Below are positions 9,953-59,392 of a stretch of DNA of 64,000 nucleotides, piece by piece. A program made the translations under genes and the position numbers. The stretch comes from a virus. The first letter of the stretch is position 1. Every line of letters begins with the position of its first letter. The notes under the pieces were generated by a model. The model had not been told where the DNA came from and searched no databases. It was given only the letters and a program-made list of their open reading frames with translations. The DNA lies in the IMG/VR virus record IMGVR_UViG_3300042564_002372, positions 1-64,000 of that record. One strand, 5' to 3'.

Positions 9953-10531
9953 TTAACAACCGTTTTTACATTTACCACCACCCATCATTTTCTTCACAGT
10001 CATGCCTTTCTTAGCTACTGATTTCTTTGCTGTGATTTTTCCACCACTTTTGAAAGTTGGTCTTTTCATTTTACCACTCTCCAAGGCTTTTACCATATCA
10101 TCCACTATCATTTGCTTATCTCTACCTGGCTCACTCGTTAATCTGTCCTTCTTAAGAACTTTTCCACTTTTATCCGAAACAGTGTAATTATATGTTTGAA
10201 GATCTTTTTTATAATCAGGTAAGTTTCTTTGATTTTTATAACCAGTAGTATCAACAGACATCTTTCTATCATCACCAAGTGCAATATCCATCATTCCTCT
10301 TTTTAAGCTTTTGGCTTTCACTAAAGCTTCAGGAAGCATTGTTCCATCTTGAGCTTTTTTCATTGGTTTCTTAGCAGCAACTTTAGTACCATACTTGGCT
10401 TTACCAGCAGCTTTCATTTTAGCACCAGCAATTCTATCAGCTGCTGTAGGATTAGGGTTCTTATCAATACCTGCTTTCACAGAAAGCATTCCAAAACTTT
10501 TACCAGATTTGGCTTTTGCAATTTTTTTCAT
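9953..10531 (-). CDS. Lys-rich putative virion core protein with multiple AQxG/xxGG tags
   Basis: KAKSG, KAKYG, KAQDG, FKSGG, MMGGG motifs. Confidence 0.75.
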   Translation of the reverse strand: MKKIAKAKSGKSFGMLSVKAGIDKNPNPTAADRIAGAKMKAAGKAKYGTKVAAKKPMKKAQDGTMLPEALVKAKSLKRGMMDIALGDDRKMSVDTTGYKNQRNLPDYKKDLQTYNYTVSDKSGKVLKKDRLTSEPGRDKQMIVDDMVKALESGKMKRPTFKSGGKITAKKSVAKKGMTVKKMMGGGKCKNGC

Positions 10532-10566
10532 GATATATAAATGTTTTGTTTGAATTGTCGAATGTT

Positions 10567-58000: not shown

Positions 58001-59392
58001 TTGTGCAGTTGGATGAGGAATAAAGTTTCCCATTTGCATTACATCAGTTGCTACATCAGCATACCCAAGCCCTTGTCGTATCAATTCTTCGCCACGTCCA
58101 GGAGCTTGTTTTAGCTGAGGTAGGCTTTGTAGATATTTGAAATATTGATATTCTGGATTTTCTTTAAGTTCTAGTCCTGCAATTTTATTAGCAATATTAG
58201 TATCTATATTTGTTTCATCTTTTTCAATCTTTTTTCCTTTCTGTGCTGAAGCCATTGTCTTCTTTGCATACTTTCCTTTGCTAGGAGCAGAACCAGCTGT
58301 ACGTGCGTATGTAAATCCTACAGAGCCAGGAATAGACATACCACCCATTGCAATTGGTGTAATTTCTTCATCACCTTTAGCAATGATGTTCATTAGCTTG
58401 ATAAAGTTTTCATCACCTGTCAACATGAGTGTTCTGTCAAGTGATTCATTATTCTTTAATTGTTTTTTTGCTTTATCCAGATCTTCTTTTGTAAACTCTT
58501 TACCTTTTCTAATATCATAAATATCTTTATCATACATTAGGAATCTAAGAGCATTTAAGTCAGATCTTAACTCACGAGGTTTTTCTAAATGTTGAGCATC
58601 TTGTACTTTTGACCAAAGTTCTGGAGTTAAAACTTTAGGAAGTTTCTTAGTCCAGTTTGGATCTATTGATGATCTTAGTAAATTAATTTCTTTACTACTA
58701 AGATCTGATTCGTATGTATCTATTGCATGTGCAATTTCATGGGCCTTTACTGTATTTACATCTCCATCAAAATCTCTTGGATTAATATTAGCTACTCCCT
58801 CACCCTCAAAAAATTCAGATCTTTTTGTTGGATCATAGGTTATAGCACCTGGTCGTTGAAGCTTTTCTAGTTCTAGAAAGTTACTTCTCATTTCCCTATC
58901 AATTAAACCACCGCTATATGGATCAAGTATTTCATCTCCTGTAACAGGGCTATATTCAGGAAATTCTTGATAACCTGTTTCTATTTTTCTTCTTCTATAT
59001 TCTGGACTAGTAATCCAAGATTTGAAAAACTCTACTGGATCTTTTGTTTTTTCTAAATAAGGAACTGTGGGTATAGGAGTATATTCAGGCATTCTAGCTG
59101 CTTGATCAAATGGAGAAGGATCTCTAAAGCCTTGTACAACCACTTCAGGAAGATTATATTGAGCTGCAATGCCCCTGTCCTTCTCCTCTTGCATTTTCTT
59201 ATTCATGTAGGCAGTTACACCACCTTGAGCAATTGGAATAAGTTCACCACCATCTTGAAACTGTCCTCCCCATGCGGGAGAATAGTTTCTTCCTTTAGTG
59301 TTATATCCTAGTCCAACAAAGCCTTCAGGAAGGCTAACGTTTGAATCATTAGCGTTGTCTGCTTTCCCAAAGTTATCTAACCATCCTTTCAT
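55091..59392 (-). CDS. modular internal virion polyprotein (zincin metallopeptidase module plus three other modules between QxGG linkers)
   Basis: HEIAH at 58727-58741; linkers FQDGG, AQGG, AMGG, AQKG, FQNGG, KQNGG, MQDGG, KRKGG. Confidence 0.7.
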   Translation of the reverse strand: MKGWLDNFGKADNANDSNVSLPEGFVGLGYNTKGRNYSPAWGGQFQDGGELIPIAQGGVTAYMNKKMQEEKDRGIAAQYNLPEVVVQGFRDPSPFDQAARMPEYTPIPTVPYLEKTKDPVEFFKSWITSPEYRRRKIETGYQEFPEYSPVTGDEILDPYSGGLIDREMRSNFLELEKLQRPGAITYDPTKRSEFFEGEGVANINPRDFDGDVNTVKAHEIAHAIDTYESDLSSKEINLLRSSIDPNWTKKLPKVLTPELWSKVQDAQHLEKPRELRSDLNALRFLMYDKDIYDIRKGKEFTKEDLDKAKKQLKNNESLDRTLMLTGDENFIKLMNIIAKGDEEITPIAMGGMSIPGSVGFTYARTAGSAPSKGKYAKKTMASAQKGKKIEKDETNIDTNIANKIAGLELKENPEYQYFKYLQSLPQLKQAPGRGEELIRQGLGYADVATDVMQMGNFIPHPTAQAVGRVGNIAGMIVDGLQGADEAYRGNYLNAGINLASVALPTFLGANTFRRPAMMLRPGDPLYPLTEQARRAANSPINLNKTDTGYLELFSNVKGMTNNSLLWNRGLLGALGAETAYDVMSQTSSPNVISSSDIEGVYPSGDVELIYPKSQPLPTKTESMSPAATAKKLANYINSKSGEKTGEVYGRKSYYPIDGFQNGGGIPSAQKGDDIERISINDPRYPEMYRNRQVGTYYDGAFTLPDLPEVTVTAPRSYTMDSLRDFTTAALYGIPENLMKLEQVPTAALAETVAMLTGKPYNFSNVNPNFGQFGSSQRDLSDVLGYENPEGFLQNAANIGLSAIDPTLIGGGSKLVGKQLGKNLTKQVGEVVNRSITPIGYDPFTVLASPAELLTPNFLKFKPKTHATKNRFDAWRLYNGLEPNYDTFSKNADNTLAINDFRIGKEDLQSIVDNPKSSFGTMEVRPEFNFGAVHGNGWITKGVDEQGRKFVDFTDTWDLQPLQPIKGLPKKLKEFEVSSLTGGAPFDLKNRIYYDDAGNFFDHNNNKLIEKVQSFPKGVAKENEAVDAVMLSTPKIADEKQMDVLKDWNNAQNNKYFKGAGVAGAGIIGGSSYMHKKAKEKSEESKNEVPKKQNGGEMKFYQNGLDWKPKSMQDGGEESFAKKATKFVSEEISDPVTTKALSLLNALKPLSNTEVYKTVRPVDYPNALKLPVYAYNYLMGNESEPLKTKSGKPHLAEEFWATAMNIPGERQYLKESKYKPSVAKDPDAKYYTIRDVIDDYELMNLTKDLKPGEKMEMNGLLPILDSKWYSENADTDKNVKFGDIDPLQRFTLQKSPDGSYVSIYDKYDFNNPALNRMMNPIEIYDRFYLPKKRKGGVIKDNRGQWAHPGKVTEIDSNYITMEGVPYDVVGVSDAGDTKLMKPGKNYKFKGKKVTEYPVAELGINQLDAQPMKKLNQLLNFTNNPDKDNWLDKYN

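Follow-up and report, generated by a model that had tools for sequence, protein, structure and literature searches.

The virus genome IMGVR_UViG_3300042564_002372 (G000; 109,827 bases in total) is that of a crAss-like phage, and in its first 64,000 nucleotides (the window analysed here) it encodes four short peptides that resemble the TonB boxes of Bacteroidota transporters and stand just downstream of AQxG tags in putative cargo proteins of the virion. Bacteroidota are the hosts of crAss-like phages. Membership of the Crassvirales is indicated by capsid and ring proteins that score over the cut-off for PF23898, PF24228 and PF25702. The genome occurs mainly in lake-water metagenomes, and no RNA dataset is among those listed as containing it. 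All four peptides, picked out in a first-pass annotation of the window, are present on the minus strand where that annotation had placed them, and the spacings from tag to motif (22, 34, 34 and 2 amino acids, aa) were reproduced exactly.

The first two peptides share one 1433-aa open reading frame (ORF), protein A (55091-59392, minus strand, as are all features described here unless noted), which lies between muzzle-like genes and the gene for the cargo protein C1. Box 1, LPEVVVQG (aa 81-88; 59129-59152), follows the tag AQGG (aa 55-58; 59219-59230), heads a module with a zincin-like domain and is the best match of the genome to the SusC box. Box 2, LPEVTVTA (aa 706-713; 57254-57277), follows the tag AQKG (aa 668-671; 57380-57391) and heads a module made of the box, a helical region of about 100 aa and a variable C-terminal part. 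Box 3, LPGVNVLG (aa 682-689; 53023-53046), is degenerate and lies in a variable segment of the 973-aa protein B (52168-55089), downstream of another AQGG tag (aa 644-647; 53149-53160). Finally, box 4, LPEALVKA (from aa 66; 10313-10336), follows the tag AQDG (aa 60-63; 10343-10354) in a 192-aa Lys-rich protein (9953-10531). AQxG is itself one form of a wider tag, x-[AQEK]-x-G-G.

Protein A is a mosaic polyprotein, and its modules are reshuffled among relatives. Splitting 120 homologues at x-[AQEK]-x-G-G-type tags gave 605 pieces in 60 clusters, and the tags delimit the shuffled modules. Across these homologues the enzyme domains are zincin, transglycosylase (SLT), ADP-ribosyltransferase (ART-PolyVal), YkuD, amidase and lysozyme. 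In A itself, the box-1 module contains the HExxH motif (HEIAH; 58727-58741) of a zincin-like domain, a candidate processing protease or effector, and the zincin stretch matches gp42 of Cellulophaga phage phi17:2. Disparate enzyme domains in one late-gene polypeptide (zincin in A, the others in homologues) are also the mark of the phage polyvalent proteins (Iyer et al. 2017), which combine zincin metallopeptidase, ART-PolyVal and lysozyme domains and, according to a proposal in the part of PMC5512222 cited here, enter the virion, are injected and are cut into units. In contrast to those proteins, the modules described here, some of which are boxed, have a repeated GG tag at their boundaries; PMC5512222, within the same limits, never mentions TonB. 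A first scan for relatives with the whole of A found none, and searches of PDB sequences with A1 and A6 found no relative.

One to two residues past an MGG tag, A also carries a 13-aa near copy (58295-58333) of the N-terminal arm of the major capsid protein, the gene for which lies beyond the window (79972-81525 of G000). The copy occurs in 116 of the 120 homologues (once in 115 and twice in one) and in 102 of 140 A-like proteins taken from loci, and two distant phages with a different capsid N-terminus lack it in their A-like proteins. On these sequence comparisons it is probably a capsid anchor, or capsid-loading signal, of A, which suggests that A would be anchored inside the head.

Protein B is a homologue of the crAss001 cargo protein C1 (gp45) by fold and gene position, with each line of evidence modest alone. 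The model of B aa 420-778 aligns with 7qog_M, the gp45 chain bound to the portal, along 115 of 126 residues (Z 7.1, root-mean-square deviation 3.5), a chain that ranked only 47 among helical look-alikes in that comparison; ESM language-model features of B point to crAss_CARG1 (0.93, 176 shared); and hhalign places B on gp45 423-491 (E 0.0012, probability 20%). A Pfam search of B gave no crAss_CARG1 match, a profile built from B homologues did not match gp45, and Foldseek with the B model returned nothing at E 0.001. The C1 portal-binding-type domain of B (about aa 420-620; 53230-53832) begins at an AMGG tag. B and gp45 are alike in gene position, in the fold of the portal-bound domain and in their GG tags, but gp45 has no box and crAss001 has no separate A-type gene between the muzzle and gp45. 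The earlier description of these proteins as putatively ejected fits B, which by its homology is of cargo type. In the relative cr112_1, the C1 gene (L453:1936-4985) is split by an endonuclease ORF just ahead of the portal-binding domain.

Sequence comparisons indicate that the motif is real and selected at the protein level. A strict pattern gave 133 matches in 96 of the 120 A homologues, against a shuffled mean of 0.72 and a maximum of 4 in 200 shuffles, an excess that overstates independence because the homologues are related. Similarly, 142 of 145 copies fall no more than 45 aa past a tag, compared with 24.6% of all positions, a linkage that is partly circular because these same proteins supplied the tag pattern. 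In distant phages the motif stands in unrelated flanks (for example LEEVVVQGV, MDEVVVSAP, LQEVVVTGK and LPTVTVTGD) and its codons vary freely, with all six Leu and all four Val codons in use and the two boxes of A differing in codons, which together imply that selection acts on the peptide. Could the motif instead be due to chance, or be a joint at which modules are shuffled by recombination at the DNA level? The halves of modules upstream and downstream are indeed swapped at the box in close relatives, but residues that are kept while codons vary, and the strong excess over shuffles, largely refute this explanation, which we regard as exceedingly improbable; crossovers within a coding stretch that is conserved account for the swaps.

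A broad regular expression applied to the tagged proteins of distant loci gave 39 matches against 18 shuffled. Sharper than this was a host-only matrix, trained on host transporters with position 2 unscored and compared with 3 shuffles only; in its training 1 of 19 Flavobacterium boxes was mis-picked and 2 of 21 loci gave no box. At 12 bits it found 22 matches in A-like proteins (1.7 shuffled) and 12 in B-like proteins (0.3 shuffled), with no excess in gp46-like (4 against 3.0) or RNA polymerase-like proteins (2 against 5.7). A polymerase-cluster protein of one relative (L254:14477-20488) has the peptide LPEVVVKP, with a spacer like that of A modules.

For comparison with the host, 107 SusC N-termini were gathered by an independent signature, and their 67 distinct boxes were made into a position-specific scoring matrix. 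The box of this sample reads LDEVVVVG, in agreement with the validated Bt1763 box (VDEVVV, in the part of PMC7782687 cited here). Motifs 1, 2, 3 and 4 rank 1, 8, 89 and 163 of 34,288 ORF 8-mers; of the four proposed TonB boxes, therefore, only motifs 1 and 2 resemble boxes when taken by themselves, and motifs 3 and 4 are degenerate. Motif 3 is rescued by homologues, some relatives having canonical boxes in the same segment (LDEVAVSAS, LDEAVVTGT and LEEVVVQGV). The plus-strand LPEVP repeats at 29122-29778 were rejected as further boxes, since they arise where the repeat region of a 1611-aa minus-strand gene is read on the other strand.

Copies from relatives were also chosen by position, with the A5 alignment covering 43 of 150 listed module matches that were picked for short length and had all been found by a box-containing profile. 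These copies read L-[DP]-E-V-V-[VI]-T-[GA]. All 44 position-chosen copies keep L/M1, V/F/I4 and V/I6, 42 of them keep E3, and position 2 is D in 24, P in 16 and N in 4; Asp prevails here among distant copies, even though the profile used in the search was rich in Pro. Among 186 SusC windows, the 44 copies fit the TonB box best, with a mean of 6.8 bits against 1.05 for the next, whereas motifs 2 and 3 score better against another SusC strand, LPGVSVLV of the N-terminal extension, because of their Pro at position 2. The phage boxes thus resemble those of SusC and other TonB-dependent transporters in consensus (L-[DENP]-E-V-V-[VI]-T-[GA]), in being extended and in being internal rather than terminal. 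They differ in that the phage cargo has no barrel, plug or signal peptide, in the frequent Pro at position 2, and in that TonB binding is only predicted.

Structure prediction is consistent with an accessible box 2. In a monomer model with a predicted template modelling score of 0.29, box 2 is an unpaired coil with a predicted local distance difference test score (pLDDT) of about 70, so that, at this low overall confidence, burial of the motif as a paired strand of a folded domain is not seen; box 3 lies in a stretch of pLDDT about 49 that is partly drawn as helix. With a Bacteroidota TonB domain as stand-in for that of the host, the predicted complex of box 2 scored 0.32, against 0.02 for the best control, which lends weak support to the complex with the TonB C-terminal domain that the first-pass annotation had anticipated. 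In calibration this mark let through 58 of 80 solved complexes and 2 of 110 mismatched pairs, and scores of 0.60 or below at the mark came from just 7 of the 80 solved complexes, yet from both mismatches. Agreement between runs extends to at least 66% of contacts, and the partner pLDDT is at least 49; TonB-box complexes have already been solved, so the prediction may merely reproduce known structures. A fold search with the box-2 module found nothing, and G000 encodes no TonB domain that could serve as a partner.

Boxed modules mainly have the order of tag, spacer of 2-60 aa, box, about 100 conserved helical residues and variable C-terminal domain. A small helix-plus-hairpin element (57280-57379; of YGTPEY type in distant relatives) precedes many boxes and is absent before others. 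In a 50% library, 252 proteins match the box-2-type module; among 150 listed matches, 117 were examined (27 were already in the earlier homologue set and 6 were cut N-terminally) and 77 of these 117 have a box at 10 bits. The same type of boxed module sits in A of some phages and in B of others. ART-PolyVal lies in a boxed module of protein P0057, and none of 55 transglycosylase (SLT) modules is boxed.

This order of box, helical translocation-like region and variable enzyme is also found in group B colicins, pyocins and klebicin C, and it raises the question of whether the modules are phage-borne colicin-like toxins, released by lysis and entering neighbouring Bacteroidota by a TonB-dependent route. 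The order parallels that of group B colicins as described in the part of PMC11658791 drawn on here, the helical region weakly resembles PT-TG (0.78) and MafB (0.77), which are leads only, and the C-terminal domains are polymorphic. However, the modules sit inside a virion polyprotein, in proteins with capsid and portal anchors, and the channel proposed for them is the phage tail. Neither Pfam nor PHROGs recognised a receptor-binding domain, and no immunity-like gene stands beside A or B, where structural and cargo genes abut without a small ORF between them. Furthermore, a parallel with Bacteroidota Rhs toxins, in which the tips would start with a box, was rejected for the sample examined, as 0 of 21 Bacteroidota Rhs toxin tips from 30 loci has one within 110 aa. 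Such toxins are an improbable explanation.

We consider it somewhat probable that the motif mimics the host TonB box in an accessory role: effector modules of crassvirus cargo, once injected, would be gripped at the box by TonB-ExbBD and pulled or held as they move towards the inner membrane. Tags of the form x-[AQEK]-x-G-G delimit the modules that make up proteins A and B, both of which, by homology (B to C1, and A through its capsid-arm copy), would be packed in the head. At infection the modules, cut or merely unfolded at the tags, would be threaded through the tail. A box that reached the periplasm could then be bound by the TonB C-terminal domain as an extra beta-strand, as in transporters and group B colicins, and the ExbB-ExbD motor would pull or hold the module and pass it to the inner membrane. 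There the helical region may insert and deliver the enzyme, be it an ADP-ribosyltransferase, a zincin or another, while cell-wall hydrolase modules, mostly without a box, would act in the periplasm. The box would accordingly be a helper in effector delivery and not part of the core ejection machine. Klebicin C (KlebC) is a case in which the channel for a protein pulled by TonB is something other than a TonB-dependent transporter, as reported in the same part of PMC11658791.

Several observations weigh against this proposal. Boxes at 10 bits are patchy: among A-like clusters 22 of 89 have one, and among B-like clusters 12 of 85. They are missing from the C1- or A-type proteins of seven annotated relatives that keep the tags (phi17:2, crAss001, Lbo-JY46, cr112_1, cr111_1, DAC15 and Dulem virus 41). 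The motif is thus tag-linked and recurrent but far from general among orthologues, and a core role in crossing the envelope, as first suggested, is not supported by its distribution. No cultured phage with a boxed module was found; the only cultured-phage matches were to phi17:2 for the zincin stretch and, weakly, to Lbo-JY46 for the C-terminal domain. Lbo-JY46, the recorded host of which is a cyanobacterium, has no boxes, but Bacteroidota phages without boxes also exist. Only 2 of 15 distant matches that start past the box reach 10 bits, one boxed module holds a YkuD domain, which acts in the periplasm, and muzzle-like proteins show some excess with the host-only matrix at 12 bits (11 against 3.0). 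Proline at position 2 was absent from the 107 SusC rows, from 21 Flavobacterium transporters and from a five-genome pattern scan.

Box 4 adds to these difficulties. The sequence LP[EQG] after the tag is kept in 110 of 111 tagged homologues of the small protein, yet position 6 is Lys in 65 of the 111 copies and Val in 45, so that a hydrophobic residue at the position equivalent to V6 of colicin M is found in 45 of 111 copies of this family against 44 of 44 in the A-module family. A V6K change inactivates the TonB box of colicin M, according to the part of PMC11658791 cited. Box 4 is therefore conserved yet mostly a poor TonB box, and retention of L-P-E-V-T despite Lys at position 6 hints at another partner. 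The small protein is probably internal to the head, and the same is likely for the products of the other small Lys-rich ORFs clustered at 9599-15330, several of which have the same tags near their ends.

What could such a partner be? The main rival to a TonB-box mimic is a docking strand internal to the phage, which would bind the portal, ring, muzzle, capsid interior or processing protease and would resemble a TonB box because both are beta-augmentation strands. The capsid-arm copy in A is a precedent for a second post-tag peptide that imitates a phage protein, the small protein keeps L-P-E-V-T while position 6 is broken, and Pro at position 2 is frequent in the phage and unseen in the sampled host boxes. 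In crAss001, moreover, the muzzle binds a 14-residue cargo segment of unassigned identity (PMC10172136). Against docking, the match to the host box spans up to eight positions, including E3, T7 and G/A8, and D2 dominates the distant copies; no structural protein of G000 bears a similar strand for the cargo to copy; and a core docking signal is expected to occur as widely as the capsid mimic or the tags do, which the box does not. On balance, we regard a docking strand as unlikely, and a TonB-box mimic remains our preferred reading.

The tags themselves are suggestive of processing sites, as far as comparison of homologues can tell. GG tags are family-wide in C1-type proteins (crAss001 gp45, L451:16988-19516; L453-L456; L192:18132-23038), and a GG tag stands ahead of the portal-binding domain in four of four further gut relatives. 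In gp45 the resolved helix 214-245 sits between two tags, and the resolved domain 425-552 starts at an A-F-G-G tag and stops before the next. Counting against cleavage at the tags, gp45 was modelled as one chain by its authors (in the part of PMC10172136 cited here), and, within the same limits, that report on crAss001 makes no mention of cleavage or TonB and no such motif appears there. As tag residues lie inside the resolved gp45 domain, any cut would fall before the GG. If the tags are cut sites, the tail-held and portal-held parts of gp45 would be separate fragments, which would change the published one-chain picture. A role for TonB does not depend on cleavage, since TonB needs no free N-terminus; the boxes of SusC and FecA are internal, on the parts of PMC7782687 and PMC11658791 used here. 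A stronger proposal, in which TonB pulls each boxed module out of the tail in the direction of the inner membrane across a large freshwater crassvirus clade, so that one step of protein ejection is driven by the proton-motive force, with the GG tags as processing sites, is one that we hold only tentatively and consider rather doubtful.

It had also been suggested that the boxes could jam TonB and thereby block superinfection. Competition for TonB by free box peptides is conceivable in principle, and box 4 lies in a small protein. However, all three proteins lack a hydrophobic signal at the N-terminus, so that newly made box proteins would stay in the cytoplasm, and the boxes are fused to long enzyme modules. 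Delivery from the virion fares no better, with about a dozen C1 copies per virion (in the available part of PMC10172136) against three to eight TonB_C matches per sampled host genome. Jamming is highly improbable.

An open question in the biology of short-tailed phages is what drives protein ejection after the pressure in the head falls, for which PMC10172136, in the part cited, offers pressure only. Phages T1 and phi80 also use host TonB energy for entry, but there TonB acts on the box of the host receptor FhuA, whereas here the box would be on the injected phage proteins. Group B colicins are known to hijack TonB by means of a box, and polyvalent proteins are known as modular effectors that are injected; the combination of the two in phage virion cargo was not found in print. 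A literature search, mostly of papers available without subscription, returned no paper on the GG tag or on a TonB box within phage cargo. If correct, our proposal would be the first case, as far as this search shows, of a phage protein that itself couples to a host envelope motor. Furthermore, the grammar of the tags and the capsid-arm mimic give testable rules for the loading and release of about 5 MDa of crassvirus cargo.

Three further observations concern relatives and neighbouring genes. The Leptolyngbya phage Lbo-JY46 (L452, PP438436.1) is the only cultured phage that matches the capsid protein of this genome, at 26% identity; it has a crAss-like gene layout and the tags despite its cyanobacterial host record, and that record may deserve a check. 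A 1695-aa protein, P0215, fuses an A-type module, ART-PolyVal and a crAss_CARG1 domain. Finally, within the window, a 2132-aa protein of the polymerase cluster (30657-37055) has an ART-PolyVal match.

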